Below, piece after piece: positions 7,394 to 63,673 of a stretch of 64,000 nt of DNA. Every line of letters begins with the position of its first letter. Position 1 is the stretch's first letter. Origin of the DNA: Paraspadella gotoi (lineage: Eukaryota > Animalia > Chaetognatha); the NCBI GenBank assembly GCA_051294375.1, contig JBJCIZ010000028.1:1239576-1303575 (forward strand), written 5' to 3'. Under the pieces are notes generated by a model. That model worked only from the letters and a program-made list of their open reading frames with translations. It had not been told where the DNA came from and did no database searches. The translations under genes were made by a program, and so were the position numbers.

Positions 7394-8679
7394 TATTTGA
7401 TTGTGCAATCGGTTTATTTATAAATATTATTACATCGTTTGTGGTTTTTAAAGATTTTATAATTTGACCAAATATTGTTCGTTGGCTGTCGAGTGTCCAA
7501 GCGAACGGGTGAACCGATTTTGATCCGAGGTTGTCTCGTGGAAACGGAACAAAAGCCACTCAACTCGTCCTCGATAAAAAGAAAGAAACTTTAAATACGT
7601 AATTAAATATTAAAGCGCTAAAAGTGACAAAGGTTAAAGAAATTGAAATCAGGTGTGTAAATAAAAAATAAACGTCTTGTAAAATTATCAACTCTTATCG
7701 GGAACAATGATTAATGAAAGTGATAATGAGTGATAATAAGTGATAATAAGCGCCATGAAAGTGATAATGAGTAAAGGGATCTTTCAATTAGTTAATCCAG
7801 TGATTTAGGGATAAAAGGGGAAACAAATAATAAAATGAGTAAAACTCAAATATGTAAATTGCAAGGAGTAGAATTGATCGGTGGGAGAAAGAGTGAGACA
7901 CTTCGAGTGACTTGAAGATCGAAAGTTCACCAGTCCGTCAGTCTATCCATTTTCTTATTTTATAATTCTTACCTTATAATTCATTCTGTATCTTTGACTC
8001 TAAAGCAGCATGGTAGAAAAAACAGAGTCTGTAGCAAAAACCTTCCGAAAAAGCAAGATCCAAACCCGTCAAAGCCGCTTTAATTATAAAGCAAGACCGG
8101 CGAAAAAAAGCACTCCTTTTCAAGTAAAGCAAAAACCTCGAGATGCTGGAAATCGTTCTACAATCACAACAACAACTAAACCAACAAAAAAAATGCAACA
8201 GATTTTTTCTTAGTATATTACTAAATTAGATATGAGGTCATAAATATTCTTTGCGCATAGTATTTTTTTTTTAAAGTGTCGTGTTATTAAACATTGGAAA
8301 ACCCAAAAAAAGTTTATCTATTGGAATAGAACATAAAGGCATGACACTTTGAATAATTTACTGCTATATGCAAATAAGATGGGCTCGATATCATATCACT
8401 GGGAGTAAATAAATAAGACTGTGAGAGAGTCTTGATTGAAAGCTTGCAGAAACTTGCTATGTTATTATCTTGTAAGTGTGATGGAGGCCTTAAACCACCG
8501 AAGCCAGTCCAAAGTCAGAGACAAGATAGCTTATTTATCAAATGAATGGATAATTTTTATAATGGTTGTACCAATTTCATAATATACTAAGAAACCATCT
8601 GTTACAATATAATCTGTTACATCTGTTACCATCTGTTACAATATAAGCGCGATCGAAAGAAAGAGCGAGCTTTTTTTTT

Positions 8680-11600
8680 TCATTGAACATCAGAGAGCTT
8701 GAGTCCCGAAGAGTCGGCGTCGTCTTCGTCGCCGCAGTTTTTTCTGGCGTCGAATTCTTCAAGGATGTCCGCGACGACCTCATCGGCGGAGACGCATGGC
8801 GGGAGATCCGCCCGCCGCCGGCGTTCTTCCGCGTATTCCTCGGAGGCTTTGAGCCATAGCATCGTGTTTTTCGTTCCGGAACTCAAGTCGCGCCGATGAC
8901 CGCGTTTCCACGAAGAGTCTCGCTCGATGGCGCCGGTTGAACCCCCGGCGACGGAAGATGAAGCGATGGAAGCGAAAGGCGGCGTCGCGGCGTCGGCTGC
9001 GGCGCCCGACGAGGGTTGGCGGAGATGAAAGACTTTTTGGACAGAGGAAGAAGAGGCAAAGACGCCGGAGTGAATGGAAGCGGCGCCGCCGTCGCCCGAG
9101 CGGCGCTTTTGAAGAGAGCGCGTTTCGTCATCGCGAAGACGAGGTCTGGTGGGCGGGGTGCCGACTCGAAGGTGGGCGTGGCTGTTGAGAATAAGAAGAA
9201 TTTGAGTAAGAAATCGAAAGCGAGGCTCGGAAACTTAAAACCTAAAGCAACAGACGGGTTGCCTCTTGGGATGGGCATCTCACTGTTGGCTTTTAGGGCT
9301 TCCGACCCTCAGTGACGCCGCCTAACACTGGCGCGGTTACCCAAGGACGGTCTCGCTTTGCCAAGGCAGAGTCCGTAGGTCCGTGGTTAAAACGCAGGGT
9401 TGTGATGGTGCGTTCCCCCTCTGAGCCAATGAGATTGGCTGAATAATCTAAATAATTTATCCTTGAATCAACACAGAAATCCCAACCAAAATCCAATTCA
9501 TAATCCTCCATATATTCCGCTTCAACTCCCCCCCCCCCTCGTTCTCACTCTTTAACGATCGGACTGACGATTTCCTCGATCCCAACCCTAGCTACATCCG
9601 GGGACGAGAACGACATCCGGCGACGCCGCGTCGAGTCCAGCGGCGCCGCGAGGCTGGCGTCGTTCGCCGTCACGAAGGCCGAGTCGTCGTCGTCGTCGTC
9701 CTCGACTGGGAGGGAGTCGTCGGCGTCGCCCGTGTCGGCCACGAGAGCGTCGGTAGAGGCGTCGGCTTCCGGAAGCGAATCCGGAGGCGTGGCGGGCGAG
9801 TTGGAATCGTAGGCGGCGTGAAAGCGGATCGAGCTTGGGAAAGAGACGGGAAAGATCATTCATATTGACTAAACTTACTATACATACTTAATTTCATAAC
9901 TTAATTCACTAAATGAACTTGCCAGATCCTAACTTACCCAATGTCCTGGTACCAACTGGAAAGGTCGCCTCTGCCCTGAACTTCCCATTCTTCAAAGGAA
10001 TCGTCGACCCGAGAGATGTTAGGGACTTTGTAGCAGGGATCGCCTTTCTGGGAAAGAGAAACATAACCATCAATAGTAGGGCCAATCTTTGTCAATGGTG
10101 TGGGTCAGAAGTTTGTTTTCGGAACCTTCCCAAATGAAATTTCATACATTTCTGAGAAAACTTTCAATGGACCAAAATTGTCTAAAATGGCTTGAAGCAC
10201 TAGTAATTAATTTTTTAATATTTATTTATAGATAATAAATGTCAAATTTTTTTTTAAATTTCAAATTCAGATAGCTTATGAAAAGTTGTCTACATAAAGT
10301 ATAATTATTTTTTCAATATTTTGATGATAAGTGAGTCAAAATTTGAAAAAACTTGTAATAATCATCCTCATCAATCGAAAATTTTAATAGTTTTTACTAA
10401 TTTTCAGTAATAAAACATCAAAATTTTAAAAAGTTGTAATTACATTTTGGTTCGGAACATTTTTGCAAAAAAATATTTTAACACAATAACTAATATAAAT
10501 AATATATTCGTTTAATGCTGTTCCCATTAAAATTTTAAATTGGTTGGCTACCGCTATCAATAGGGATCGCCTGTTTTTTGTTATAAAATATTACTATAAC
10601 TTTCTGTTAAGTAAAATATTAGGCTGGCGTTTCTCACCTTTAGCTTCATATCGATCGTCACGTAGAGAATCGAGTTGTCCATGTTTTTAGAGTCGTATCC
10701 TTCAAGAATTCCTGCCAGGAAATTAAGGGGGGGGGAATAGATCGTAAATAAATATTAAATAAATAGCAATAAGTTCAGACGGTTATAAAGAAAACAACTG
10801 GCCTAACTACAACGACGACAATAAACATTCCAGACTTAAGCCAGCAACAAAGACAAATATGCAATTATCCATCTGTCCTTCGATCCGTGATTCGGAACCC
10901 AAATCTTGTCCAGACTCACTCTTGATGGAGACCAGTCCGCCTCTCGCGTGTTCTGCCAAATCAACGTCCAAAAATCCCATTTTCTTCGCCGTCACCTGAA
11001 AAAATGGATTTGAAGGAAAATGTTTGTTCTATTGCCTTAAAGGTTTAATATTAATATTTTACATTATTTATTTGTGGTTCAATTAATAGCCAAATAATTA
11101 TATTGACAATATTGTTGACAATCTCAAAGACTTACCGATGCGTAATATTATCATTAATGATTATTAACGGATGCTAATGATATATTAAATACTATTTAAT
11201 GAATTACGTAATCCATATAAGCTGACCTTCCAAGCCAGCACCTCCCTCCGCACGCTGATCCTGCAGAGAGAGGGTGCCAGCACCCCCGTCTCTTCGTCGG
11301 AACTGAGTCGCGCCTCGAAGTCGACGCCCCAATTCCAGACGACGCGATTCTTGGCGACGGACTCTTTGGGAGAGAAGCGGACCAGGTTCCGACCGTCCAG
11401 GACCCGGAGTTTGGCGAAGAGGACTCCGTTGGCGTAGGGGACCTGGGAAGAGGACCTGGTACGTTACAAGCGGACTTCCTTTGCGTAGGGGAACCTGGCA
11501 TAGGACCTTGGAACTCGTTGTAGGACTTAGTTTCTCGAAAGACCATCATCACGAGCTAACGACAATTCGAATTCCACATCCATTATGTACATTTACTACT

Positions 11601-12263: not shown

Positions 12264-13046
12264 TCATGTAAAATCCTCTTTTCGCGGATTCGGGTCGGGA
12301 ACTCGGCGAAGCACTTTATTCTCCGGCCAGACTTGCTTAAGTTTCCTCGCCCTCGCGAGATGTAATCTCTCAGCGTATCGTCGATCGCTAAGATCAGCTT
12401 CTCTTCCTCTCCAGATCCATTGTTCGTTGTCCTTGGGATAATCAAAGGGATTCGGCTCGTGGTCGTCGTTGTGCGACTCCGGCACCAGATGTTCTTCGAA
12501 CTCTCGAACGAAGGGTCGTCCGAGTTGATCGTGTCTCCACTCGCGACGAGGACGTCCGGGGATGCCCGTCTCCAGCAAGTGAAATGCCTCGTCTCTTTCC
12601 GCGACGACGGCGAGGATGTTCTCCATCGACTCGTCGCATTTGTCGAGTCGATCCGGCGACGGAAAAGAGACGCAGAGTCGACGATATTCTTCCTCCATCG
12701 TTAAGAGGAGATTGACTTCCTTCAAGAGAACGAACCACAGTTGATGCAGATCGGAATTGCTCTTCAGTCTCAGTTCTTCAATATTCCAAGCTCGACCGAC
12801 TCTCAATTCCTTTTTGCCCCAATTGTCTGAATCGTCGAAGAAATCCATGAGAGACGAAGATGAAGAAGAAGTTGAAAATCGGGAGTTTGAGATGGGAGAG
12901 AGAGAAGGGGGAGAAGTGTTGAAAGAATAGAGCTGGAGACGGGGAGTATTAAAAGATCGAAAAGCCGGAAGAGATCGAAAGGGCGACGTGACGACGAATC
13001 GTCGAAAATCCCCGACGTTTCTTTGGACGATCGACTTGAGCGCCAT
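12264..13046 (-). CDS. MRPL47: Mitochondrial ribosomal protein L47 (uL29m), intronless
   Basis: 260 aa with an Arg/Ser-rich transit-like N-terminus and LMDFFDD...VGRAWNIEELRLKSNSDLHQLWFVLLKEVNLLLTM...FPSPDRLDKCDESMENI, characteristic of MRPL47. Confidence 0.95.
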   Translation of the reverse strand: MALKSIVQRNVGDFRRFVVTSPFRSLPAFRSFNTPRLQLYSFNTSPPSLSPISNSRFSTSSSSSSLMDFFDDSDNWGKKELRVGRAWNIEELRLKSNSDLHQLWFVLLKEVNLLLTMEEEYRRLCVSFPSPDRLDKCDESMENILAVVAERDEAFHLLETGIPGRPRREWRHDQLGRPFVREFEEHLVPESHNDDHEPNPFDYPKDNEQWIWRGREADLSDRRYAERLHLARARKLKQVWPENKVLRRVPDPNPRKEDFT

Positions 13047-13871: not shown

Positions 13872-16863
13872 TCATTTCCGCCAGGCAGTTGAGGATCCTC
13901 CAACGTCTCTGACGAGCATCTCCACTTTAGCGAAATACAGAAGATTCTCTCCGTCGAACCAGAAGGGATTTCGTTGAGTCAGACAGACGTGATAACAGGC
14001 GTTGAACCACCATCCCACACTGGAGAGGGAGCGGGTGTGGGATTGATTAATTGATTGATTGATGACTGACTGTCTCTTACTCTTCATGCAAACGTGATAG
14101 TACACGTATGAGAGAAGAATCCAGTCATAGGCAAATCGTAAATTCGAAACTCAGCTCGTCTCATTAGCTTACACAGCTAAATACTCACTATCCAACAGTG
14201 AGTTCCGGGATCAATCCCCTCACGGTCATGCTGGTTAAGTGTGATAGTACCGGTATAAGTGATATGGGGAGGTCACTGCAGGTCCAAAGCCCTGAGCGCC
14301 AGCAGTCGGGAAATACACAACACCCTGGGCAACAGACAAGTACACCCGTCATATCACTGTCATTATGTCCGATGGTGATTCTTCTTCCTGTCATGTCTGT
14401 CTGTCTGTCCTTCTGTTGCATCTAAACCTCTTTCTCGTCTGTCTTTCTGTCTAAGTGTCATTCTTTTTTCTTTGTTTTCTTTGCCGTGTGGTCGTGTCTT
14501 TGTCTCTTTCATCATTACTTCCTGCCTTTCTGTCCCGACCCAAATTCCTGAACCTCATTATCTTCCTCACTTGTTATAAGTATCGGCGCAGTTGGCAGAG
14601 GTGAGGTCGTTGTCACTGTCCCATGTGGAGAACTGTGACCCGTCCAACTTTCGCTCAGGAAATTGAGTCACGTCGTGAATTGGATCGAAGGTGGAGGCGC
14701 GACTGAACCCATCGAATGACTGGATGGGACCTGAGAGAGAAAGAGAGAGAGAGATGATTTAACCGAATGTGGGGAAGAGTACAGAATTTTTGCAGACTGG
14801 TTCACGGCAAAAGTTGATTTCGTGATTGATAAGATCGATAACGTATTTACAATTTTATTCGTTCGGTTCACAAAAAAGCTTTTAAAGAATCTCTTTAAAA
14901 GATAACACTAATAAACAATCAATTTTTTTTCTTCTATTTTGAAATAGGTTTATCTCTACTAAGAGCAAGTACAAACCTTTCTGAAAAAAAACTAAAAATT
15001 GAACCTTTTAAGAAAAGAAGGCGGAATGACGAAATGCAAATGAGAAAAAAGAGTTGTACCGATATGAATGGCGTAGTTGCCTTCTTCGTCGTCCAACTTA
15101 AAATCGTCATAAACAATCCATCCCGTTTGTCCCGAATATTTGCCTCCCGTTTCGTCTGATTTGTAGACCCCGCGGATCATGAGTTGGAAGCGACTGTCCT
15201 GAGAAGTACAATCATATCATTATAAAATATCTAATATTTATCATTTTATCTTTTTTTATAATTTTTTTTGGGGTTAATTTATTTAAATCTAATATTATTT
15301 AACAATTATTTGGATGGGGACTTAAGTGTTGTCTTCTGGAAATAGAGGGAGCATCTACACAACACAAGGTTAGATTACTTTCTGCTCTAGTTTTCTAATA
15401 GATATCGTACATCATTCCTGTTGGAAAATCATTAATGACAAAAATCAATATCTAAAAGGCCGAACAAAAAGGGGGGAACGGATAATTTTTAGGGTGGGAT
15501 TAAGGTTATAAATGATTATTTTTAGCTTGTAGAAGACGAAAATAGTAATAATAAAAGTGAAAAGAAGGTGAAGAATTGTGACGATGTAAGAGAAGTAGAA
15601 AAGAAGTGAGACGAGCTCTCTCCTGATCCACTTTTATCATCGCCCGGTGGTAAGTCGCCTCAAACTTTCTTTTTTATTATTGACTTGATGGGTTAACTCA
15701 CTTAGTTTTTAGATTGGCTTAAATGACTGGTTCTTATTTAAACTGCGGGCATCTTGCGCTAGATAGAGAGATAGAGAGATCTGCCAGCGATGTAGGAAAG
15801 ATAATAATGTAATCGTAAAAAGCTTTTTAGTTGCGCCGCGAGTACTCGCGGAGCAACTCTAAGTCATTTTTCGGTCGGCCGGTCGGTCGGTCCGTCTGTC
15901 GGTCTATCTGTCCCACTTATGTTAAAAACTTGCTTATAATTTGTTAAAAATCAAATATAAGCAACTACTGGCGCCGTCTTTTGTTTTTAAATAAATCTTA
16001 TAAACTATAAGGAATAAATGACATGATAAGTAAAAAGAAAAGTAATGCGGCGCAACACCTTGGAATAACCGTTCCTTGTTTATCGCTTAAAAGGTCAGTT
16101 AAATGGTTTTTTAAACGGACAGTTTAAAATATCATTATAAAATAAATCATAATAAAATAAATATATTTTAATTGACTTCATTCAATAACGTAATTTAGGC
16201 AACAAAAAAACAAAAAAACAAAAAAAAAACAAAACAAAACAAAAAATATGGATTCTCCAAAATGCAAATGAGATTATAAAACCGTATCTTATTTTCCCTC
16301 TCCCTCCCCAACTCACGGCGGCTGTGATCCGCCTCAAGGCTTCCAACCCGAGCCAGAACTCGGTCTCATCGCTGCCGTTGGCGCCGGCGCCGGCCCGGCC
16401 GAAGCCTTCGCGGTACTGAGCCCAATTCTTTGACTCGAAGAGGCCAGAGGATCCGAGGTTTCGGTGGACGATGATCCAACCCTGGTCGTCGCAAAGATGG
16501 AAGACTCGACCGCCGTGGGATGAGCTGGAAGGCGGGGAGAGGGAAGGAAAGCTTTTATTGTTTTTAACCTTTTTGCCTTTTTACTTTTTACTTTTTCTTT
16601 TCTTTTTTTTTATTATTACGCTTTTTTGTATTTGTTATCGTAATTTTTTTTTTGGGGGGGTTTGGGTCTCGGATTTATTTGTTTGCTGAATTGGTAAGTT
16701 TATTAGTCTATCACCCTTGTAAATTTAGATATAAAATTAATATTTATAAAGAGAAACCCGAGTCTTCAAGGCCGACACCTGTTGGAAGCCGTCACGGCCA
16801 TGTTGTTGCAGGCGAACTGAGCTCGTCTCTTTATTTCAGCCTCCCAAGAGGCGGAGGAAGGAA

Positions 16864-20043: not shown

Positions 20044-20719
20044 TTTCGACGCTAATTTGTCTTGTGATGGCCAGGAATCTGTATCCTGGACATGAGAGAG
20101 TTGCCCGATTTAAAAATTTCTCATAAAAACTCGAAAATTTATTTGCTAATGACTTTTATAAGAAAAGAATGTTCCAGTAAATATACACATATAATAAATA
20201 AGGATCACCATTTGGTGATGGCTCGCCTATACCTGATATTGGGATTAAAGAGCCGAAATCCATGAAGGGTATAGGTTCCCAACTGATGACCTTCCCATTG
20301 TATAAACATAATAGATAAAAAATATTCAAAAAAGAAATAATTAAAAAATAGGATAAAGAAAAAATAAAATTTTCATTAAAGTATTTTAAAATTATTCATG
20401 AAATAAAGGTGCCCCTATAGACCTTTCCCCAGTTTGTATCCCTATCAGAACATACAATTCTACATGGTAGTCTTATCCCTATTGGTAAAAAAAAATCATA
20501 TATAACGTTGGTCCCCCTCAAAAAATTATCCATTCCCACCCCTTTCTGTTCAGCCTCTTAGATATTATGATTTTTCATTGATGACTTTCTAACAGAAATG
20601 ATGTGTGATATCTATTAGAAAACTAGGACAGATAGTAATCTAACCTTGTGTTGTATAGATGCTCCTCTATGGCAACAACCGGGTGCCTGTGATGCCCATT
20701 GGGATGGGGCATCTCACTG

Positions 20720-20799
20720 TTGGCTTTGGGGCTTCCGACCCTCAGTGACGCCTCCAGTCACTGGCGCGGTTACCCTAGGACGGTCTCGCTTTGCCAACG
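20720..20799 (-). ncRNA. Type-P5 twister ribozyme in the downstream LTR; predicted cleavage 20772^20771
   Basis: GTTGGC-AAA-GCGA-GACCG-TCCTAGGG-T^AA-CCGC-GC-CAGTGAC/GTCACTG-AGGG-TCGGAAGC-CCC-AAA-GCCAAC. Confidence 0.75.
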
Positions 20800-21203
20800 C
20801 AGAGGGAAGTCGTTAGGACTGTGGATGGAACACTACGCCTGGGATGGTGTGTTCCCCTCTGAGCAATGGATTTGCTGACAGATGGTGGACGTGAGGCGGT
20901 GTGAATATACCGCCACAGGATCCCGGGCCAAGACATCACTCAGGTTCCTCAAGCCTGAGAGGTGTCTGACAAGACTGTTACCATAGTGGGAGAGAGAGAG
21001 AGAGCGCGAGTTGTGGGGGCATAGGCGTTTGTCGTAGCGTACCCCAGGGGCATAGGCGTTTGTCGTAGCGTACCCAAAGTCGGCAGGGCATAGGGCGTTT
21101 GTCGTAGCATACCCTGAGAAGGTTGCGTGTTCGATAGTAGGGCTCACCACTTATGGCAACAGCCGGGTGCCTGTGATGCCCATTGGGATGGGGCATCTCA
21201 CTG

Positions 21204-21283
21204 TTGGCTTTGGGGGCTTCCGACCCTCAGTGACGCCTCCAGTCACTGGCGCGGTTACCCTAGGACGGTCTCGCTTTGCCAAC
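21204..21283 (-). ncRNA. Type-P5 twister ribozyme in the upstream LTR; predicted cleavage 21257^21256
   Basis: Same core as 20720-20799. Confidence 0.75.
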
Positions 21284-21611
21284 GCAGAGGGAAGTCATTA
21301 GGACTGTGGATGGAACACTACGCCTGGGATGGTGTGTTCCCCTCTGAGCCAATGGATTTGGCTGACGGATGGTGGACGTGAGGCGGTGTGAATATACCGC
21401 CACACTCCCTCTATTTCCAGAAGACAACACTGACTTCCCCTTCCCAAATTGAAATATTAGATAAATAAACATTTTTAAAAAAGAAAGCAATATATATTTG
21501 TTTAGATAATATAGATTAAATACTAGACATTATGTATATACTCTCTTTTCGTTGTTTTTTGAGGTATTAGGACAAAAACAGTTTTATTTGACAACGATTT
21601 AATTGACACAA

Positions 21612-22585: not shown

Positions 22586-23248
22586 TTGTGTCAATTAAAT
22601 CGTTGTCAAATAAAACTGTTTTTGTCCTAATAGATAAATACTAAATCATTCATAAAATATAAAATAGAAAATAGTGAAACAAGTAATTTGCAAATTTTCA
22701 TATATTATTATTATTTATTAAATGAATGGATAATTTTTATATTGGTTGTACTTATTTTATAAACTAGTTACTAAACGTATTAATAAATTTTCATAGCATT
22801 AGAAATGAGGCAACCTCTCTCTCTTTTCGATATTCGTAAATAGATTCTCAGAAAAGAATCCTGACCGCTGCTCTGCCGCTGCTGTCGCCACCGACGCCCT
22901 AAAACCGCGTCAGTTTCAAAAGAGAAGAAAAGAGATTCCGTCAGTAAAATAAGATTGTGAACTCTGAAGATGTGAGTATCTTATTATAGGATTTAGGGCC
23001 TGAAAGAAAAATATATGTTTTATGAAATACATACTGAGCACTTACGTCTTAACTCCAGAGGAGAGAGATAGAGACCGGTGGGAAGTCGACTCAATACATT
23101 GCCCCTTTCCCGTTCGGTCGTGCTCGCTTCCTTATTATCCTCTTTGTTTTATATTTCTAAGAAAATTAGTGAAAATCACCTTAGCTTAAAAAGTTTTTTT
23201 AATATACTTGTAATTTAAAATAAAAAATACATTACGTAATACGTATAT

Positions 23249-23503
23249 TATGTCAACAGGCGGGTTGCCTGTGATGCCCATTGGGATGGGGCATCTCACT
23301 GTTGGCTTTGGGGGCTTCCGACCCTCAGTGACGCCTCCAGTCACTGGCGCGGTTACCCAAGGACGGTCTCGCTTTGCCAACGCAGAGGGAAGTCGTTAGG
23401 ACTGTGGATGGAACACAACGCCTGGGATGGTGTGTACCCCCTCTGAGCCAATGGATTTGGTTGTAGGATGGTGGACGTGAGGCGGTGTGAATATACCGCC
23501 ACA
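23249..23503 (-). mobile_element. Solo LTR-like tRNA-twister element (subfamily A); twister at 23381-23301
   Basis: TGTGGCG...GTTGACATA flanked by the ATAT/ATAT 4-bp TSD. A-box-like TGGCTCAGAGGGG and T-arm TGTG-TTCCATC-CACA. Twister cleavage predicted at 23355^23354. Confidence 0.85.
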
Positions 23504-23637
23504 ATATAAAATTATGATACACCTGCCAAGCTTCGCTTTATATTTACGACTTATGTATGTACGCACTCGAAAATCTTTTAAGGGTCTCTGATAAATTAAA
23601 TTTATTTAGCAAATAAGAACGAAAAAAATAAATATTG

Positions 23638-23871
23638 TATGGTGGACTAAAATCCACCAACCGTTTATCAGCGGCCATTGGTGCCGGAGGCAAGTCATTC
23701 GCCTCCCAACCCAAAGGTCCGGGGTTCTAGCCCGGTGGTCGTCTGGCAGTTAAGAGGGACGGGGCGCTTAACCCGCCTGTAACATGGTGTTACAGCCTGA
23801 TCCGAAGCTCAGGGACTGCGTATATTGAACGGTTCTGTCATTAACACTTATCAATAATTACTGTCTCTTCA
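23638..23871 (+). mobile_element. tRNA-twister element, divergent subfamily D; twister at 23746-23819
   Basis: ATTG/ATTG flanks. 5' hairpin GGTGGA/TCCACC. tRNA-like GCGGCCATTGGTGCCGGAGG...GGTTCTAGCCC. Then GCAGT-TAA-GAGG-GACGG-GGCGCT-T^AA-CCC-GC-CTGTAAC/GTTACAG-CCTGA-TCCGAAGC-TCAGG-G-ACTGC. Confidence 0.75.
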
Positions 23872-24366
23872 ATTGGTCAATAAAAACAACTTATACAAAA
23901 TTTTAAAATAAACCAAATTTTTGACTGACAAAAATTCTAAATTCTAAAATAATTTTTTTTTCTTTTAGGATTCAAATCTTGATAAAAAAAACACAAAACC
24001 ACTGTAACGGCTTCCACTACTCAGAAACTGCAGCAGCAGCAGGAGTAGCAGCAGCAAAATGATCGAACGAGAAAACGAGCAAAGAAACAAACAAACTGAA
24101 TTGAAAAAAATTCATTGCGAGACCCATAATTAAAAAAAAAGGAAGTAATATTATAAAAAGTAATATTATAACAAAGAGGCGGATAACAACAACGATTCCA
24201 GATCAGACGAAACCCAGCGAAGGGAAAGACCTCGACGCCGCCGAATTAACATCAACTCTAATATATTTATTGGTATGTAGCTATATGTATATTACTTAAT
24301 ATAATAATGATAATAACGCCAAATCCTGCTCGAGGTCCGCTCGTCCTCGATGGGTTTCGGCCAATC

Positions 24367-27300
24367 CTAATCCAAGAGCTGCAGCAGCGTCCCTTGCTCT
24401 TGAAACAAAAAGGCTGAGAAGACTCGATCCAGCTCCGCCTCTGCGTCGCGGAACGCCTGCCGCTCGATCCGCGACCGGAAATCCTCGGCGGCGCCTCGAT
24501 TCGCGCCGCGCGTTACCGTCCGACCCGAAGTGGGCGTGGCGCTCGTGGGAGGGAGAACGTCGAGGGAGACTCTTCCGCCCTCTGGCGTCCGGAGAAAGGC
24601 GAACTCTTCCAAGACGTCGACGACGACGACGAAGGAGAAGAATTGGGGATAAGAAAAAGATCCTTGACGCTGAATTCGTTTGACGACGTCGAGGAAAAGA
24701 GATGAATATTTGGGCCAAGAGAATTGGGTCAGGACGATGAGGTGACCCAGGGCGCGATCCTCTTGGACGCCTGAAGGTTTAACAATGGCACGTTGAGAGT
24801 GAGAGAAGAGAGAGGGAGAGAGAGAGAATAGCTAACAAATGGGGTTCATGCGTCGCACGTTTCTTTTTCTACAGGTAAATGTATTGAAATTGACATAACC
24901 AGCGACTCTTAAGCATTTATTAATTATTAATCATCATACATATGTACATAATCATCAACAAACTTCACAAATTCCAGNNNNNNNNNNNNNNNNNNNNNNN
25001 NNACTCTCAATATAAAGATGAATGGAAATAAATTTTATATTGGTGTATTGAGTGATACTTTGATTATGATCTATTTTATATGATTACGTAAATAGATACA
25101 ATTTTGTACATACTCGATACTTAATCTTAACCTCGCAGTGGTTTTTTTAAATAACGCAGCTTAGAGGTTAGACTCGTAATAAGATGAACACACTCGAATT
25201 AGATACTATAAGATTAGTAACTGTAATCTGTCAATTAAAGAATGAGGCGCATAAAGAGGCTGGTCTGTGTTATTTCAGAATTGTCATTTAGTAAGTTAGT
25301 GTGCATGTCACAACAGGGATGAGTCGTTGGGGCTCCTCTCAGGCGTCTGACGCGTCTCTTGCTCTGCTCCGCACGCAGAGGATGAGTAAAGAGCCCGCGA
25401 CGCAGGTGAAAGAGAAGAAAAGAAGTTCCGTCAGTAAAAAAGATTGTGAACTCCTCTGAAGATGGAGTATCCTTAAGTTATTGAGGATTTCAGGGTTGAC
25501 TATAGAAATTACAAATACTGTATATTAATAGCATTCAAATTACTATATACACAGAAGATGAAGTAGAGAGTCTCGCGTGGCTGAAGTTCGAAACTCGAAC
25601 ACTGGCTCTCTCACGCGTGTCCACGTACAGGTGATTAGTACAATTTATTATTAATGCCTCCTTGCTTTTCATCTCTTTCTCTTCAGAATCATCTTTACGT
25701 CTCGTCTACTACTACTATACTCCCCTTACTGTCTCCTAACGTTCTTTTCTATAATCATTTATTACTGCTCATAGATATTAAATTCTAAAATAATCTCATT
25801 ACCAGAGCGAAGTGAGCATCTATAGAAACTGGTAATAAATGTCAAATTAAGAGATCGCCTAAATGTCTACCCGCTGTGCGTGTGGCCTGACTCTTCGCTC
25901 GAAATGAGCTGCCATAGAGAAGGAAAGAATGGAGGCAGATCGTAGCAAACTGAGTTGGGATTGGAGGCTTCCGGACCACCTGACGACATGAAACGCATAG
26001 GTACCGACTGGCCCGCGGGTATACCAGAAAGAGAGACGGAGTCCGATGAGAATGATGAAGAGATTGATTGAGATTTTGATTTAGAAATTAGAGGTCTTTT
26101 TAAGATAGGAAGACAGGAGGGGATTTAGTTGGGTTTGACTTAATGGGAATCGAGAACGACGTTTGATCGAATCGAAGTTTCATTGTTTTAAGCCGAGAAA
26201 AAAAACCGCATTTGGTCTGAAGGAAGAGAGTATAAATGCCTACGCTATATGCGAGCACAACCAGAAACGAAAGTACAGATTAGGAACTGGTTGATGGAGA
26301 CAACAACATAAAGCTGGCCGGAGGATGGAGATTGAGTATGATTTGCACGATGTCACCCACAATGAACACATGGTGGCGGGGTATACGCGCATTAGGTCTT
26401 TCAGTGGGTGGCGTGACACTGTGCATTGAGGATCTGTAGATGATACAAGAATATAACCGCTCCTTTCATAATCCGATCAGTGAAGTCAACTTCATGAGCA
26501 AATGCGCGTATCTCTGATATATATAATTCTCGCCTACTTATATTGATTTATGTAATATATGGTAATGTATGGAATCTATATACTCACCAGATCGACAATC
26601 TCCGTTTATCAGCGCCATTTGGTGCCGGAGGCATAGGTCATTCGGCTCCAACCCAAAGGTCCGGGGTTCTAGCCCCGGGTGGTCGTCTGCAGGTTAAGAG
26701 GGACGGGGCGCCTTAACCCCGCCTGTAACATTGGTGTTTACAGCTTGATCCGAAGCTTGTTCTGAGCTGAACGCGTGTAATTGGAAGACTCCTGTATCTG
26801 TCCTGTACCCATCTTACTCCATATATACTTTACCTGTTCCTGTCCACAGGCATATTAGTACCACTCGGTAATGACCCGATCTTATACAAAATTTTTAAAC
26901 TCAGCTAAAAAACTAGTAATCTCTGACATATTTGCTTGGACAGCAAGCCTAGATTGATTCTATGTGTTCATAATGAACTCATATTTTATATTCTCTCGAT
27001 ATTCTCTTTGGCTGGAATATCAAATCTCCGCTAAACAGCAAATCGACTAGAGAACCATATACGGGATAATCCACATACTCCCAATACGAAGTCTTATGTC
27101 GAGCGCTTTCGACATTGCGGACATGTTAGCGAGATTTCTCAAGTCTATATCAGTAATCGATACGTTTTGAACTAACGAAGACAAAAGAGAAAATAACCGA
27201 AATATTACTTCTAAGACTAATGATATAAAACAGGAGTTAGTTGCACGAAGACCTGTAATAAACAGTTAAGCCAGACCAAACAGACGAGTTCCTCAGAGTG

Positions 27301-35887: not shown

Positions 35888-38550
35888 CACTCACCTGACG
35901 CAATGAAGGAATAAAACTATAGTAACGTAAAGCAGCTGCTTATAAGCGGCGCCCGAAGGATCTCCGTAGTTCATGTCCTGATAAAGACAAAGGATCTTTG
36001 TCCACTGCGCCTCTCGACTCTCGATGGCAAAGATGCCCTTGCTGGCCGCCCAGCCTAACTCTGCCCCGGCCGCGTCGATGATGCCGAAGAGGGTCGCCCA
36101 GGGATCGAAGGGCTGCGACGTCGTCGTCTTGTCTCCAGGAGCAGCAGCAGCACCGCCGGCTCCGGCGAGGGTCTCGCTCTCCTCCAGCCGCAGCAGATGG
36201 GGCTGAGTGATGTAGTTGATGCAGAAGTCGATGGATTTTTGGATCCAACGATAAAGATTCTTCTGTTGAGGATCGGAGACGCGAGCGAGGACGACGGGAA
36301 GAACGTCGACGACGACCATCTTGCGGTGGGCGTTCACTGGGGTCGGTTCAACCTTTTTAAAAAGGTAAGGTAAGGTAAGGTCCATTCCGTTGATGGGATC
36401 ATGTTATAAAGTTAACTATTGAAGGACCATGAACTAGCTTGGACATCTTTTATATCTAAGCAAATATGTTTTTTTTTTTTTAAAAACGAGAACGCTGACA
36501 GTGACACCTGTCATCATGATTTATCGTCGTTGTCATCTGGTCACAGTCGTGTCTGTGAGATCATTTGTATATGTCGTTGTCATCGTAATCATTATGATGG
36601 TTGTCATCGTCATCTTTGGCCAATGACTGACTGACTGACCCCTCTTTCTTGCTGCCTCTGCTGTTGATGTTGCTTCTCCGCGTTGATGAGTCGCTCGATG
36701 AGGATCGTCCCGTGCTCCTTCGATTCACGAGATAAATATTTATAAAAATGTAAATTAAATAAATTATTATATCCCGAAACATAAAAAAAAAAAAAAAAAA
36801 AACCTGCATGAGCGAAGGGAACATTTCCAATATCAAGAGTTTGACTCTCGCGTGTTCGACGATGTCGCTGCATCGATCCGCCACCTGACGGGAGAAAAAA
36901 AAACGTTATCGACGTCTCCATGGCAACTCGAGACTCACCTTTTTTTCTACCTTCAACAGCATGACCTCCTGCACGTGGGACGGCAACGTTTGAAAGAGGG
37001 CGCGATGAAAATGGGTTGGGTCGCGGTCGCCCTCACCTCGGAGGGATTCCGCGATGGAGGTAAGTTCATCCCAGAGTCGAGGTTCGTTCTCAAGTCGGGG
37101 CTGCGGTGGTGGGGGGGGGGGAAAGAGAGAAACAAAGAAAAAGGGACAAAAAGAAAGAGACAGGACGGGGAGGGGAAATAATAGTAATTATGAGTTGCCA
37201 AGTGAATAAATCAAATCTGTAATAATTTTACTTATGAATAAAGCGTCGTTAAAAGTCTAAATTTAACTTAAATAAAATTCTAAAAGTGAGGAATGAACTA
37301 CGTGGTACTAATGAACATTAATGTATAAAAAATTTTATTATATTTTTTGCAATTTACAGTAGCATAGTACTAACCCTATAAATGTTACAATTTCCAAATG
37401 GTTTTCATAAGATTTTTTTTGCAGATTTGGTTTCGTCAAAAAAGTTTATAATAAGAAATATAACTCATTTTTTAAAAAAATTTTCATTAAGTTGGTCAAA
37501 AATCGTATAACTATATATTAAGCTGAAAATTAATTTTTTGTATATTAAATGTTTTTTATTTTTTAACTCAATGAAAGAATTTTTTAAAATTAGTTATGGT
37601 GGACCAACCGTTCATCAGCGGCCATTGGTGCCGGAGGCAAGTCATTCGCCTCCCAACCCAAAGGTCCAGGGTTCTAGCATTGTCGGGAAGAAACTTTCGT
37701 GAAGATTCATCATCGGACTTTTATTCATTTAAAATATTAATTCATTGACAAATAAAACATTTCACCACGGTTCTATTCATTTATTATTCATTGATTGATA
37801 TTTATTATTCAATGAATTAATATTCAAATGAATAAAAAGTCCGATGATGAATCTTCCTTTGGGTCACCCCACACTCATCATTACCCGTTAGGGGGTATGC
37901 AGGATTCGCCCCCTAGAAGCATGGTCGTCGCCTAGGAGTTAAGAGGGACAGGGCGCCTGTAACATGGTGTTACAGCCTGATCCGAAGCTCAGGGACTGCT
38001 TATATTGAACGGTTCTGTCACTAACACATAACTATAATTACTGCCTCATCAGAGTTAAATTTTCTTTTATCAACTTTTGACAAGGAATTTAAGGATTTTT
38101 TAAGGATAGTACTATATATTATATATTATATATATTATATAACTATAGTCTACTGAGAAAACATACAATTATTTTACTCTTTTTTAAATTTAATGTTCAT
38201 TGGTTGTTCATGTTCATAATTGACCATTAGAATTTCCAGACGTCACTTTCACTACTAGTGATCAATTAATGAGCCTCACCTTTCACTCACCTAAAAACCA
38301 AATCTTTGAGCAAGAGTCCCGCCTGTTTGACATTCCCCGCCGCCTTCTCGATGGCGTAGGCTTCGAACTGGACCGAGAATTCTTTGGGGAAGAGAGTCTT
38401 GGCGGTGATGAGCCAAGCCTTGGCCGCTGAAGGATCGCTCTCCAGATGCTCGCGGGCCTTAATGGAGGGGAGCCGCGTTTTATAGAGAGTTCTTTCAACT
38501 CCGTTTTTGAAACCTGGTTCGATGCCATCATTGGCACCTTCGCCATTCAT
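24367..38550 (-). CDS. INTS10: Integrator complex subunit 10, multi-exon (locus partly misassembled)
   Basis: First exon has KAREHLESDPSAAKAWLITAKTLFPKEFSVQFEAY. An internal exon has WTWFNEFHIDLSIYQ (~29300). The last exon has DRALGHLIVL...LEEFAFLRTPEGGRVSLDVLP...TRGANRGAAEDFR. All match recalled INTS10 motifs. Confidence 0.9.
24983..35478. other. Probable assembly artefact: noisy, indel-rich direct and inverted re-copies of neighbouring sequence between N gaps
   Basis: ~24983-28380 is an insertion-riddled copy of ~22715-24960. ~29700-30300 is a noisy reverse copy of ~37740-38310. 33470-33930 is the reverse complement of 35480-35900. 34016-34620 repeats 36385-36985. 35141-35467 repeats 37273-37585. 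Real INTS10 exons lie at ~28690-29680. Confidence 0.75.
37595..38051 (+). mobile_element. Subfamily D tRNA-twister element with a deleted twister core and a nested insertion
   Basis: Matches 23638-23871, with flanks TAGT/GAGT. It is interrupted at the B-box by ~240 bp that includes the foldback at 37701-37856. Confidence 0.75.
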
Positions 38551-45500: not shown

Positions 45501-48279
45501 GTAATAGTGCATCTTCAAACATTCAATATTAATTCACAACTCTACTCACCGGGATAAACGCCAGAATGATGCGGCGCTACAGAGTAGACGGTCTCGTCCA
45601 GCGGAATACCGCGCTGCAGCCCGAACTCCCGATTCCACTGCATCTCCTGCAGCATCTGCGCAGAGTCCAGCTTGTGTGGCTGCGTGTGTCTCCACATGTG
45701 GCCGAACCACAGGAATTCTTTAGCTCGAGAGATGAGATAATCCTCAGCTTCGTCTTCGTCGCTTTGGCCGCGGTGGTAGAAATTACCTAAATAATCATTA
45801 ATGTTTAATAACTTTTAATCATTTAAATAATTAAATAATTCTGACCCGAATATCCCAAGAGAAACTTGAATCCCGGGATTACGTCGGCGAAGTCTCTCTG
45901 CGCATCGAGGAGGGCGTCGACGTCGGACTCGATCATCCGGACGCGACCAACCAAGATATCGTCGATGTCGATCTGGACGAAGCGATCGAGGGAGATCGAG
46001 ATGCGACCTGGAGGAGGGAGAAAGGGAGTTAGAGAAGAGAAGAGAAGAGAAGAGAAGAGAAGAGAAGAGAGAGAAGCCAAGCCAAGCCACCGTTGGACAG
46101 ATGATCCAGCGCCTCAAGGAATAAAACTTTGTGCAGCCAAACGGAGGAGATTTCGTGGCCGAAGAAGACGCGACGGATTCCATCGTTGGCGCCCGTGTCC
46201 TAGAGAAAATTGGGGGGGGGGAATGGGAAGTGGTGGGGTAAAAGAAGAAATGAAAATATTGGGTCAATGTTGGGAAATGACATTTCTAAAGACTCTCAAT
46301 ATACTCCTCTTTCACATTATCAGTTTTAAGTCTTTAAACTTTCGGTTCGAAGAATTGTCAAAGTACATTATTTTCTAAGATATTGTGGCGAATCCTAAAT
46401 TCGCCTCCCGTATAGCTTGGTGAAACTCAGCTCGTCCCATTGGCTTGGACAGCTAAGTACTCGTTCACCAACCGTGAGTTCAGGGTTCAATCCCCTAACG
46501 GTCACGCTGGTTAAAGTGTGATGGTGTCGGCATAAACACGCCAGTGACATGGGGTGGTCACTGCAGGTCCAAAGCCCTGAGCGCCAGCTGTCGGGAGATG
46601 CCTCACACCCCAGGCATTACACATGTCCCTCCGTTGCCATAATATACAAATAAACCCATGCTTTCTCGTCTATATTATATCGTTGTCCTTGGGCTCCTCC
46701 TCCTCCTCTCACCTGCATGACTGTGACGAGAGCGACTCGATCCTCGACGAGAGATTCCAAACTCGAATTTGTCGCCGCAGACTTAATTGTAATAAGCTTA
46801 TTATTTAAACTAATAAAATATTTTAATAAAGAAAGGCTTTATAGGCTTTACCTGCTTGTCCGCTCTGAAGGCAAGAGCGACTGGGACGAAGGCTTCATCG
46901 CCGTCGGCGTGAAACGAAGTCCAATCGCGTTTAGGCGTCGGGCCTGTCAGGACTCGCCCGGGGCGGAGAATGCGGAAGAGCGGAGAGGAGGGAAAGAGTT
47001 GAAGATCCTGAGATTAAGTTATTTGGTTATTTTAAGTTATTATAATAAGAATTTTGCGCCGTTGATTTAATAACCTATTTGAGCAATAAATAATTAAACC
47101 TTTTTAGCAGTTGTTTCAAAACTTTTAATTTATAAGTATTTTCAAAGAATTTATTTTGAAGAATGGAGTTAAGTTAAGGCTTAACCCATATAGCCTGTCC
47201 AAAGTTGAATGAATAGTGAACATTGATTGAACTTATTTCATATTTAAAATAAATGACTCTTTTCTTTCCTTTTCATTCCCTTACCTTCAAGGCAAGATTG
47301 GTCGAATACACCAAATTGGGAATTCCTTTAAGCGGTCGGTCAGTCTCCGTCTCGTCCGCGGGTTTAGAGAAGTAGATCATCCCAGCCTTGTAGTGTTGAC
47401 AGTACGAGTCCAGGAGATCCCGGTTCCACTGATTCAATCTCATGTAGGACAAAAGATTCTCGAAAACGATCACGGCGTAGCGGCCCTATGAGAGAGAGGG
47501 AGAGAGTGAGTGGGCGTCGATCGTCAACAAATAGTCGCTGTAGAATTTCCCCTTTCAGTTCTCCTTCCTTTTTACTCAAGATTTCTTTTTTTTTCTTTTC
47601 TTTTTTTTTAAGAGTTTTTTTAATTTTTCTTAGTTTTTTCTTTTTTTTTATTGAACGTTTATGAAAAAAAAATGGCGACGAAAGTTTGGAAAATCGTCAA
47701 CGGAACTTGCAGGCTGAGGATCGTGACTTCAAGGCCAAGAAGCGTCATTCCCGATCGACAGGCGAGAAAATTAATGATGCGTCCTTAGCCGTATAAGGTA
47801 GAAAGGGAAGGATAAGAAACGAATCATGAGAACTCATGTACCTTCAAGACTCTGTAAGACTCTGAAAGGCTCGGTAAGGCTCGGTTAGACTCGGTAAGTC
47901 TATTTCTCCACCGCAGACTTTGACGAGACGGCTGCGTCGAAATCCCGGCGGCGGCGGCGGCGGGGCGGCGACGCTGCTGTCGGCGGCGCCTTACCTTTTA
48001 AAAGAGACTCAACGGAAGTACAGCGCCGACGAGGAGGAGGAAGAGGAAGAAGAGGAGGAAGAGGAGGAGGTGCAAAAGAAGGGTCTTCGCAGGGAAATGA
48101 TACGGGTAATAGGAAAGATTTTAAACGATACTTTTAATATTTGAGGTAATAGTCTTTATTGAATAATTTTACACTTTTTGGGGATTTACATTATTGATGA
48201 AATACAATAATGAAAAAAAAGCTAAGAATTCAATGAAAACAATTTTTGAAAAGCTCACGTAAACCAGATTGTTTAAGCG

Positions 48280-60789: not shown

Positions 60790-63673
60790 TCATCGATTCT
60801 CGATGAATATTCATTTCTATTTACTTTAATTATTGTAACCTACATAGTAAACTAGTATATAATACAACACGACTTGACATTCTCATACCAGGGATTTTAA
60901 TATTTATAAACCCTTTTTACTATAACATAGTAATTATAACGTACACTATTTTAATACAATCGCAACCTGGGCAAGTGGACGCGTGACGAAAGAGACGCCA
61001 ATCAACGACGACAGAATCGATCTCGTTCGCCAAATCGTTGGATGTAAAAGGAAGAGCGAAGTCGACGCCCGATTGGTCAGCGTCGGAATTCGATCGGCCA
61101 ATCGGATCCACGATCTCAAAATCCTTTTCCACTTCCTCTTTCTTTTCTTCGACGGCGATTGGCTTCTTGTGCGGCCCCCAGTCGCCCGTCGAGACGGCCT
61201 CCTCCTCTTCCTCTCCTCCGCCGGCGCCGTCGACCAACGCCATGCCGCCGATGTCGACGCCGCCGCCGTCGACGCCGGCCGCGAAACCGACGCCGTTCCG
61301 TTCCGAGCGCCGGCGTCGGGATTTAAGCAGGGCGCCCCTCAGTTGGGAGATCCTGGAACTGAGATGGCGAGCGTGATCCTGCATCGAAGTCACGTGATCC
61401 TTGACGGCGCCGACGATCGATTCCACTCGATCGCAAGGATGAAGTCCAGAGTCGAATCGGTTGTACATTCCGACCCAGAGTTGCATCGCCTTTAATTAAT
61501 TCAAAGGGGGAACACAAAGTCACGATGTTCTTTTTTAAAAAATAAAATTAATACAAATTTAATGAATATATATATATATATATTATATATTATATATTCA
61601 CTTGAGAACTGGTGTCGGGAAACAAGAGGCTCGAGGCGGACTTGTTCGATTCCTCCGATTCCTTGTAGAATGGATTGTATAAAGAGTCCGTGTGTCTGTG
61701 CGAGTGAATGTATCCCCAGAAGGAATACGTACGGATCGTGAGGGCTTCCTCTCGGCGCTTGAGGAAGGAGGAAAGGAGAATGTTAAACAATAGTTTAATT
61801 CTCAATATGCATTTCATTCATTAAGAGTAGATTCCTATCTCAATAATATCTCATTCCATATTTCTGCCGCCGACCTGTCGCTCGCAATTTCCGAGAAATG
61901 TTCCGAATTGACAAGAATAGACGTGATCGTGAAGGAGGAGAAGGAATTTCTCGTTGAACTCAAAGGCTTGAGGGAATTGGGTTTGCATTTGGAAAAGACA
62001 ATCCAGGAATTGAGTGAAGACCGGGGAGACCTGGAGACGGAAAGAAAAGGCTTTAATCTCATTTGCATTTTATCGTATTTGTATATTTATTAAAATATTT
62101 ACATTTACACATACAAGTAAGAGCAAGAAAACCAGAACCAGAAATACCATTCTAAAACGACCGGAATCACAACCACGACGCCGACAACATCAACAACAAT
62201 AACATCAATGGTAACAACAACAATTAAGGCACCTCCTTGGACTCGACGGATCCTAACAGATGCCCGCATCTGTCGTTGAATTTGTGGCCAAAGGAGAGCC
62301 AGTCCTTCTCGATGAGAGCCTCGATGCCGCGAATGGTTCGGTAGTGAGGATCGAGCATCACTTGGGCCAAGGAACAAGTCTGGGCCGTTCGATCCCAACC
62401 GTCTTTTGAGTCGTTGAGGGGGGAAAAACAAATTTCATGTTTTTTTGTCATTATTACTTCTAGACATTATTACTCCTTAAAATATAGGGAACTATGGCAA
62501 CGGGAGGATAGCCTGTGATACCCGGGGCGCGGGGTATCTCACCAACTGGCGTAGGGGCTGCGGACCCTCAGTGACCGCCTCCTGTCACTGGCATGTTTAT
62601 ACCGGCACCGTCACATTTTAAGCCAGAACCGGGATACCCAGGGATTGAACCCGGGACGCACGGATGGAATGAGATGATTTAGCCTGCTCAGCCATTGAGA
62701 CGAGGCTGAGGACGGACAGCAGTGAGGCAGCTTTAAGTCTTGCTGCCACAGAACAATTAAATAAAGTGTTAAACGGTAATAAGCATTGAGAAAAAATAAT
62801 AAGTAATAATATTTTTTTTCAGAAAATTCACTAAAACGAAGTGTTACAAATTTAACAAAATCTTTCGCGATATTTGTTTACCATACCCGCCCACATTTGG
62901 CACACACGACCACTCACTACCCACACGACCACACACTACCCACACCCGCCTTAACCTGAGCAGTGGACGAGAACGGAGACCCGCTCGACGGCGACGGCGC
63001 GGGCGATGAAGGCCGACGTCTTGAGGATGGCCTGGATGTGTTTGAGCCAACCCGTAGAATCCACGCCCGACAAATAACCCGACATCGTCGGCTGGAGAGA
63101 CTCCAGCTGCTCCAGAAGCTTTTGAAGACTGGAGCGCATGACGTGGATGTTCTCCACACCTGTGGATGAAAAGGGAAAAGAAAAATGATGGAATAAGAAA
63201 ACGTGTAAGTGGTAAAATAAAATTAAGATTAATGAAATTAATATTACCAATAGGCTATAGTATAAAATATATTCATTCGATATATGTAGGCTCTCTAGCC
63301 TCGATTTGGGTAAAAGCCTATGTTCCTCCCTTTAATCTCATGTGATAAAATGGTAACTGTAATGAACTGTTATGAACTGACCGGAGAACTTAAACTTGAT
63401 ATCCCTATAATTGTCTTCGCTCTCGTATCCTTTCCCCGACGCCCGATTCGCCATCGCGTTGATCTTGGGTCTCGTGTCCACGACGTACATAAACTTGGAG
63501 TCAGGATTCGCCCGCAGGATGATCTGCAGCAGCGTCTCATCCTCGACGCTGCGTTTCTGGAATCCTGACAGCGGCTGGCTGCTGCGGCAGATGGCGGACG
63601 CGGCGTCGCTGTGGAGGTAGGTCAGGACGGGGAGTCGACCTTTGGATCTGGAGTTGAGAAGGATATGGGGAAT

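Follow-up and report, generated by a model that had tools for sequence, protein, structure and literature searches.

Twister-type folds in the long terminal repeats of a gene-less miniature retrotransposon family of Paraspadella gotoi, a candidate animal LTR retrozyme

The analysed DNA was a 64,000-nt window from the chaetognath Paraspadella gotoi, and comparisons between copies were confined to those within this window. A fold of the twister ribozyme class is predicted at 46506-46588 on the plus strand, inside a 258-bp long terminal repeat (LTR) at 46384..46641, and self-comparison of the window identified 11 related places. The intact copies each lay within an LTR of 234-258 bp, downstream of putative tRNA-type A and B boxes, and one 737-bp element carried two such LTRs. 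We take these copies to represent a gene-less miniature LTR retrotransposon family. On balance, and with considerable reservation, we favour a cycle in which the folds likely cut the element RNA to a unit-length copy; this copy would be closed into a circle, after which a helper, likely a Gypsy element of the CsRn1 clade, would reverse-transcribe and insert it.

The twister ribozyme class is said to go back to Roth et al. (2014). Its features were taken here from the available parts of PMC6154101 and PMC8501958. A sequence-only reading of this DNA had placed a twister at exactly 46506..46588, and the ends of this interval coincided with the two strands of P5 in a P5-permuted fold. Specifically, P5 (46506-10/46584-88) is followed by P2', the first strand of P2 (46516-19/46536-39), the predicted catalytic GA (46520-21), the first strand of the T1 pseudoknot (46522-24/46569-71), an 8-base self-complementary P1 linker (46525-32) and TAA (UAA in the RNA, 46533-35), with the predicted cut at 46533/46534. 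The second strand of P2 then leads into GC, which forms one side of the T2 pseudoknot (46540-41/46574-75), a 7-bp P3 hairpin (46542-63), and P4 (46564-67/46576-79) with the loop T-CCA-AA-GC, before the closing strand of P5; all these features are on the plus strand.

A twister descriptor requiring the core letters, P2, P4, a 3-bp T1 and a 2-bp P1 found eight sites in the window (9.3k, 20.7k, 21.2k, 23.3k, 23.8k, 26.7k, 46.5k and 62.6k), compared with one site in total in 500 block-wise dinucleotide shuffles; the descriptor was composed once the copies were known, so this contrast is somewhat inflated. The letters that the sequence-only reading had called invariant (GA, TAA, GC and T...AGC) were present at 8/8 sites, as was UAA in L1 with its U-A step adjoining P1, but the descriptor demands them, and the penultimate L4 base of the 62.6k copy is C instead of A. 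The conserved G-A after P2' and both L4 pseudoknots, T1 and T2, were present, as in the twister class. The claimed T1 pairs were confirmed, namely TGG:CCA at 46.5k, CGG:CCG at 62.6k and 23.8k, and CCG:CGG at 9.3k, 20.7k, 21.2k and 23.3k. The variants given for P2, P3 and P4 were also correct as lists but omitted several irregularities: the P2 pair adjoining the core is A.C in the lineage B copies, P2 of lineage C (23.8k) has only two in-register pairs, or three with a bulged A, P3 is imperfect in the 9.3k copy, and P4 has 3 bp in the 20.7k, 21.2k and 23.3k copies. Three of the 11 window copies failed the descriptor, with the core partly lost at 14.2k and 37.9k and the 30.1k copy very noisy; the 26.7k site lies within a noisy local duplication of the 23.8k region.

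Covariation was counted in a MAFFT alignment of eight related copies, with lineage C misaligned in P3 and the structure derived from the same sequences; on this footing, 89.4% of 198 cells were paired and 10/26 pairs were altered on both sides. None of the 500 shuffles attained that level of pairing and 2/500 attained as many two-sided changes, and slid controls were 25-42% paired. T1 was paired in 23/24 cells, with two-sided changes in 2/3 pairs, and T2 was invariant; P4 and P2 were paired in 90% and 79% of cells, respectively. The claim of four divergent subfamilies held insofar as diverged copies kept their pairs, but these really form 3-4 lineages at 49-68% identity: 68% between the two A copies, 60-65% between A and B, and 49-54% for C. 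Although the pair changes are carried by only these 3-4 independent lineages, they support the fold. Across A, A2 and B, the 5' parts of the LTR were less conserved than the core (12/53 and 27/85 columns). Single-strand folding, which leaves pseudoknots outside the model, gave unremarkable z-scores of -1.7 to +0.6 for the seven cores tested.

When 141 bases around the site were searched, the best local Rfam match was RF02684, Twister-P5, at 46516-46579 (22.2 bits, E 0.0058; below its gathering score), with P3 aligned as an insertion. In the stretch 23230-23880, which holds B and C copies, RF02684 had no match even at E<=10. Over the whole window, 37 matches were obtained at E<=10; the sole twister among them was RF03160 at E 6.2, the top-ranked were microsatellite-driven matches to miRNA families, and no hammerhead family matched. 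The assignment to the twister class, as the sequence-only reading had it, is nevertheless well supported by the catalytic positions, both pseudoknots, the two-sided changes and the best local Rfam match, and we regard a real twister lineage as highly probable.

The LTR that holds the 46.5k fold (lineage A, plus strand) is a solo LTR that runs from TGTGGC to GCCATA between copies of the target-site duplication (TSD) ATAT, with an A-box-like motif at 46441-46449 and a B box at 46484-46494 (+). Another 258-bp solo LTR, of lineage A2, is at 62493..62750 on the minus strand (TSD GTTC), with clear A and B boxes and a twister core at 62554-62616. Lineage B comprised a 255-bp solo LTR at 23249..23503 (minus strand; TSD ATAT; core 23311-23372), a partial LTR with ends not intact at 9248..9442 (minus strand; core 9295-9356) and the two-LTR element. 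The three units at 46.4k, 62.6k and 23.3k (255-258 bp) all start with TGTGGC, end with G(C/A)CATA and are flanked by perfect 4-bp target duplications. The lineage C unit at 23638..23871 (plus strand, 234 bp) has TA...CA ends, TSD ATTG, a 5' hairpin, tRNA-like A and B boxes and a twister core at 23754-23811, and is probably the solo LTR of a related family. The TSD was thus exact in four solo units, and no two-LTR form of lineage A or C was seen in the window. Each LTR lineage also starts with a hairpin of 6-7 bp (46387-46405, 62750-62728, 21404-21385 and 23640-23659) whose letters differ and whose pairing is kept, and the A and B LTRs have another hairpin 3' of the twister.

The remaining copies were less well preserved. 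A decayed lineage A copy at 14146..14349 (+) has lost the P2/T2 strand of the twister. A lineage C copy at 26602..26759 (+) lies inside a noisy local duplication of 22.9-24.9k and is not an independent insertion on present evidence; another, at 37595..38051 (+), has a partly deleted twister core, is split by an insertion of about 240 bp and has a noisy inverted duplicate near 30.0-30.1k. The 26.7k and 30.1k copies were excluded from the independent count. The insertion (37676-37922) begins with TG, has a 5-bp flanking duplication and could be the solo LTR of a different family. Several stretches are duplicated locally at 72-95% identity, with numerous small indels and short gaps of N (22.9-24.9k vs 25.4-28.3k, 37.7-38.3k vs 29.7-30.3k, 41.5-41.9k vs 44.3-44.7k, and 33.4-37.6k); these resemble uncorrected or redundant assembly and inflate copy counts.

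The complete two-LTR element (lineage B) occupies 20668..21404 on the minus strand, and its LTRs are 97.6% identical. Its 5' LTR (21152..21404) has a twister core at 21213-21274, and its 3' LTR (20668..20917) has one at 20728-20789. The 234-bp internal region (20918..21151) contains three repeats of about 31 bp, a CT microsatellite and a hairpin; no sign of gag-pol and no clear polypurine tract was found in it. The element interrupts another repeat, with TSD GGAG and two extra bases on one side; this target is an AT-rich interspersed repeat, intact at 15278-15523 and present as 20488-20667/21405-21469 around the insertion. Joints skipping the same 743 bases were found in 4/4 sequencing runs (12, 14, 5 and 5 contigs), and these may stem from other copies of the host repeat rather than from an empty allele. 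Relative to the unique flank, the LTRs, the internal region and lineage C had a summed contig depth higher by a factor of several hundred to tens of thousands, a measure that does not translate into copy number; from the depth of the internal region it follows that this region is itself repeated, and all are abundant repeats. Of two further studies (X10 and X11), each had one contig with either the junction between LTR and primer-binding site or that between internal region and 3' LTR; these contigs may stem from the same organism and were not taken as evidence of other species. Runs X12 and X13, from other organisms, gave no matching contigs, which is no proof of absence. Run X6 was considered as RNA and set aside, as it behaves like the DNA run X5. 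A further high-depth repeat is present at 8490-8582 and 22711-22762; its 8.5k copy carries a short twister P4/L4-like hairpin motif and fails the descriptor.

The primer-binding site of the 737-bp element, TGGTGAGCCC, starts two bases past the 5' LTR (21140-21149, minus strand) and is complementary to tRNA-Trp. The same primer-binding site, together with TGT...ATA ends and 4-bp TSDs, is among the hallmarks of the CsRn1 clade of Gypsy elements (available parts of PMC2582038), whose 5' end is given as TGTGGYG (PMC3601003, in part). The TGTGG..ATA ends and 4-bp TSDs of lineages A and B and the tRNA-Trp site match these hallmarks, whereas the ends of lineage C differ. Past a short gap, complementarity to tRNA-Trp resumes in a 17-base stretch at 21117-21133 (-), with 17/17 bases matching the tRNA-Trp fragment printed in PMC8722339; the primer site could have two parts, or the stretch could be left over from reverse transcription that extended further into the primer. 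Rfam had no match in the primer-site region, and a pattern scan with the tRNA-Trp motif gave two matches, neither a tRNA. We are confident that these sequence features mark a miniature LTR element mobilised by Gypsy machinery. A reading of lineages A and B as short interspersed nuclear elements (SINEs) was ruled out by the inverted ends, the 4-bp TSDs and the two-LTR copy. In viral contigs, the family core pattern had no match and a pattern of LTR end plus primer-binding site had two, of which the one inspected resembles chance; the latter pattern also gave 37 matches in metagenomes, none with a second LTR copy, and these were taken as chance.

For the A and B boxes, we used patterns that we take to be those of tRNA-type promoters. 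The boxes were then compared with the description of Helenus elements in the available parts of PMC10886601. Such boxes were found upstream of every twister, clear in the 62.6k copy and present in the 46.4k copy and in lineage C; in lineage B the B box is degenerate. ARAGORN found no tRNA in the window. On the sense strand, a run of four T was absent from 6/6 units and from the 737-bp element. Transcription by RNA polymerase III (Pol III) is, in our view, rather probable.

Between T1 and UAA lies the P1 linker, 6-8 bases long. The sequence-only reading mentions neither its inability to form a stable hairpin nor that the family is an LTR element with tRNA-type boxes. By energy evaluation, a hairpin in the linker would cost +2.9 to +5.6 kcal/mol; two pairs are possible in A and B and one in C, all at positive energy, and a full duplex could form only between two copies. 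The linker self-pairs over 8/8, 8/8, 8/8, 8/8 and 6/6 bases in five copies spanning all four lineages, with centres that differ among A, B and C. The probability of self-complementary inner positions arising by chance in three lineages is about 0.002-0.007 by composition, with two copies at 6/8 as exceptions. Modelled dimers with swapped strands were 8-15 kcal/mol below two monomers, counting nested pairs only. Because the linker is self-complementary in all four lineages, cutting is predicted to occur in a dimer of the two LTRs, the same device by which hammerheads of Penelope-like elements cut (PMC6765202, in part). That cutting would require the dimer is a possibility we hold tentatively on these models. 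A myotubularin-family gene has the 62493..62750 solo LTR in one of its introns (62403-62954), in sense orientation, as would suit a ribozyme that is silent on its own; the changed L4 base occurs in this copy too.

In the cycle that we favour, Pol III would initiate at the 5' LTR's tRNA-type boxes and transcribe on through the element. Pairing between the P1 linkers would then bring the twisters of the 5' and 3' LTRs together, each would cut at its U-A step, and the double cut would free a 485-base RNA. As the same site is cut in both LTRs, this RNA would have no terminal repeat and would have to be closed into a circle for reverse transcription to rebuild two LTRs. Circular RNA has been shown for plant retrozymes (PMC4918200 and PMC7761336, in part). 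A tRNA-Trp would prime reverse transcription, and helper enzymes would integrate the copy. Recombination between LTRs would leave solo LTRs; with one twister each, these would cut poorly, and we propose that they are therefore tolerated in host introns. The circular intermediate is conceivable and is put forward with hesitation.

Several findings weigh against this cycle. The RF02684 score lies below the gathering cut-off of 37.6 bits, and no Rfam family reached its gathering threshold anywhere in the window; the covariance-model check that the sequence-only reading proposed as a refuting test thus counts partly against it, an outcome that the missing P3 of the model probably explains. Across A, A2 and B, the core had 40/66 conserved columns and the 3' part of the LTR 35/64. 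The same reading had also suggested long-term selection on catalysis, which is plausible but is tempered by this near-equal conservation and by the small number of lineages. The linker is only 6/8 self-paired in two B copies (9.3k and 23.3k) and 4/7 in the noisy 26.7k copy. Tertiary contacts do not enter the dimer energies, and energy is gained in every swap from hairpin to duplex; moreover, twisters can cut without P1, if inefficiently (PMC8501958, in part), so a monomer may be active. In the only complete element, the B box is degenerate and the 3' LTR no longer matches the A box; since the element is 58% GC, its lack of T runs is weak evidence for Pol III. The polypurine tract is at most a purine run of 4-5 bases, ending three bases before the 3' LTR. 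The predicted 485-base circle is 59% paired, compared with more than 70% for the hammerhead-repeat RNAs of the retrozyme paper (PMC4918200, in part). Finally, no autonomous helper was found, although no genome-wide search was aimed at one, and a Pfam scan of 36 of the 71 window open reading frames of at least 120 aa identified no retroelement domain.

Some of these findings would suit a different cycle, which we consider rather unlikely, in which the twister is active as a monomer and only sets the end of a linear RNA, for instance in place of the T-run terminator after the Helenus B box, so that an ordinary linear LTR cycle proceeds with no circle. Many Helenus LTRs in the three supplement parts compared (of 11) have a T-rich stretch where the twister is here, twisters are described as tolerating a short or missing P1 (PMC8501958, in part), and the modest pairing of the predicted circle points in the same direction. 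However, identical twisters cutting both LTRs would remove the terminal repeat needed for strand transfer, a monomer-active sense twister in the myotubularin intron would cut the host pre-mRNA (though the L4 base of that copy is changed), and the self-complementarity of the linker would be left unexplained. The palindromic linker could also be read as an RNA dimerisation signal for packaging, with the whole structure twister-like and non-catalytic. The sub-threshold Rfam score and the ordinary folding z-scores would agree with this, but the catalytic G, UAA step, L4 loop and two pseudoknots, which are all in register, would be superfluous in a packaging signal, and we judge this explanation very improbable.

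It is also conceivable, though improbable, that the module of tRNA boxes and twister is a passenger, of real origin in a SINE-like insertion or in the LTR of an autonomous CsRn1 element and no longer needed for spread. Kojima proposed a SINE insertion as the origin of Helenus LTRs (PMC10886601, in part), and conservation of the core hardly exceeds that of the LTR's 3' part. The three window copies that fail the descriptor would also be explained, yet decay of dead genomic copies is expected under any model. What speaks for continued use is that the pairings, both pseudoknots and the catalytic bases are kept across lineages only 50-68% identical and in the young two-LTR element.

Apart from repeats, the window contains host genes, and the Pfam scan identified MRPL47, INTS10, myotubularin and heparan sulfate deacetylase domains. 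The best named matches of MRPL47 came from molluscs, annelids and insects, at roughly 40-60% identity, a placement among animals but in no particular phylum. MRPL47 is a single open reading frame at 12264-13046 (-), INTS10 exons are located at 28.6-36.4k (-), and myotubularin exons at 62.3-63.8k (-). A heparan sulfate N-deacetylase domain at 50.0-50.8k (-) overlaps a 54-bp tandem array.

To our knowledge, the one demonstrated role of twisters in animals is at the 5' end of a non-LTR element, and the LTR retrozymes described so far are all plant elements with hammerheads. Searches of open-access PubMed Central and bioRxiv (titles and abstract starts), with subscription journals and Repbase outside their reach, returned no report of a twister in an LTR or a terminal-repeat retrotransposon in miniature (TRIM), of a ribozyme in Helenus or of a dimeric twister. 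Among ribozymes, the window folds are closest to Type-P5 twisters (RF02684, clan CL00120), with which they share the order P2'-GA-T1-P1-UAA-P2-GC-P4-L4 closed by P5, both pseudoknots and the core bases. They differ in a 7-bp P3 that the Rfam P5 model lacks and in a P1 that is a self-complementary linker of 6-8 bases and no stable hairpin. The T-variant twisters of Perere-3 in Schistosoma mansoni (PMC8501958, in part) are likewise tied to a retroelement and have an altered P1, but Perere-3 is a non-LTR element with one ribozyme each, of the P1-type permutation and at the 5' end. CsRn1-clade Ty3/Gypsy elements (PMC2582038 and PMC3601003) share the TGTGG 5' end, the ..ATA 3' end, the primer-binding site for tRNA-Trp, and a 4-bp TSD; the window element has no gag-pol, the available parts of those two sources mention no ribozyme or Pol III boxes, and lineage C ends in TA...CA.

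Helenus, named by Kojima in 2024, is a miniature LTR element with tRNA-type boxes, a 4-bp TSD and a Gypsy-type primer-binding site (PMC10886601, in part). Helenus/TRIMp3 and the present family are both non-coding, with two LTRs, a length below 1 kb (737 bp here), a tRNA primer-binding site, a 4-bp TSD as in animal Helenus families, a Gypsy-type helper (a likely one here) and many solo LTRs. The tRNA-type boxes in the LTR, a further Helenus trait, are clear or present in lineages A, A2 and C, with a degenerate B box in the complete element. The window LTRs differ in running about 150 bases beyond the B box and holding the twister there, in the weak polypurine tract and in the ..CCATA ends. Since the polypurine tract is unconvincing, we termed the family Helenus-like and did not file it as a Helenus member. 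The Helenus data file was compared through supplement parts 1, 6 and 9 of 11 and through text searches. In part 6, bivalve Helenus LTRs end soon after the B box, and across the three parts many LTRs have a T-rich stretch just past it, at the position of the twister in the window family (PMC10886601). The accessible text of that paper mentions no ribozyme in Helenus, and a text search for four twister L4 motifs matched no LTR, with line breaks able to conceal motifs.

The sole families in the data file that matched the searched tRNA-Trp primer-site string were Helenus-2_SyJa and Helenus-2_SyUm of gall wasps (PMC10886601 DataS1), and their LTRs start with TGTGG. Judged by eye and without a covariance model, Helenus-2_SyJa-LTR and Helenus-2_SyUm-LTR each show, downstream of their tRNA boxes, the core of a type III hammerhead, with three helices and with loops I and II complementary to each other; the paper is silent on this core. 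The other three matches to the hammerhead core motif, all in fungal file parts, showed no such context in the returned passages. Compared with the window family, the wasp elements therefore have a hammerhead in the same place as the twister, along with a longer internal region and a clear polypurine tract. The remaining supplement parts may contain more ribozyme-bearing Helenus families. As a speculative extension, these families could together form an undescribed class of animal LTR retrozymes, Pol III-driven and tRNA-Trp-primed, with an interchangeable ribozyme behind the promoter: twister here and type III hammerhead in the two wasp families. In this class, an obligate-dimer twister would fire only with both LTRs on one transcript and free a viroid-sized circle, leaving solo LTRs silent.

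The layout as a whole resembles that of plant LTR retrozymes (PMC4918200 and PMC7761336, in part), which likewise are non-coding elements whose two LTRs each contain a self-cleaving motif (predicted here at 21213-21274 and 20728-20789), and which have a 4-bp TSD, a primer-binding site, a Gypsy helper (a likely one here) and solo LTRs. Plant retrozymes have a type III hammerhead, a tRNA-Met primer-binding site, a clear polypurine tract and demonstrated circular RNA, whereas the present family has a twister fold, known from sequence. Metazoan retrozymes lack LTRs, primer-binding sites and polypurine tracts according to a 2020 review (PMC7761336, in part). The family is likely an animal LTR retrozyme, a counterpart of the plant ones with another ribozyme. 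Every part of it appears to be of a known kind, and the novelty would lie in the combination of twister, Helenus-like LTRs and retrozyme layout in an animal. If this is true, a twister dependent on two copies would act as a natural switch by which full elements and solo LTRs are distinguished, and small circular RNAs in animals would be predicted to have a new source. A twister in an animal miniature LTR would then join three known kinds, namely twister, Helenus and retrozyme, with ribozymes as swappable parts.

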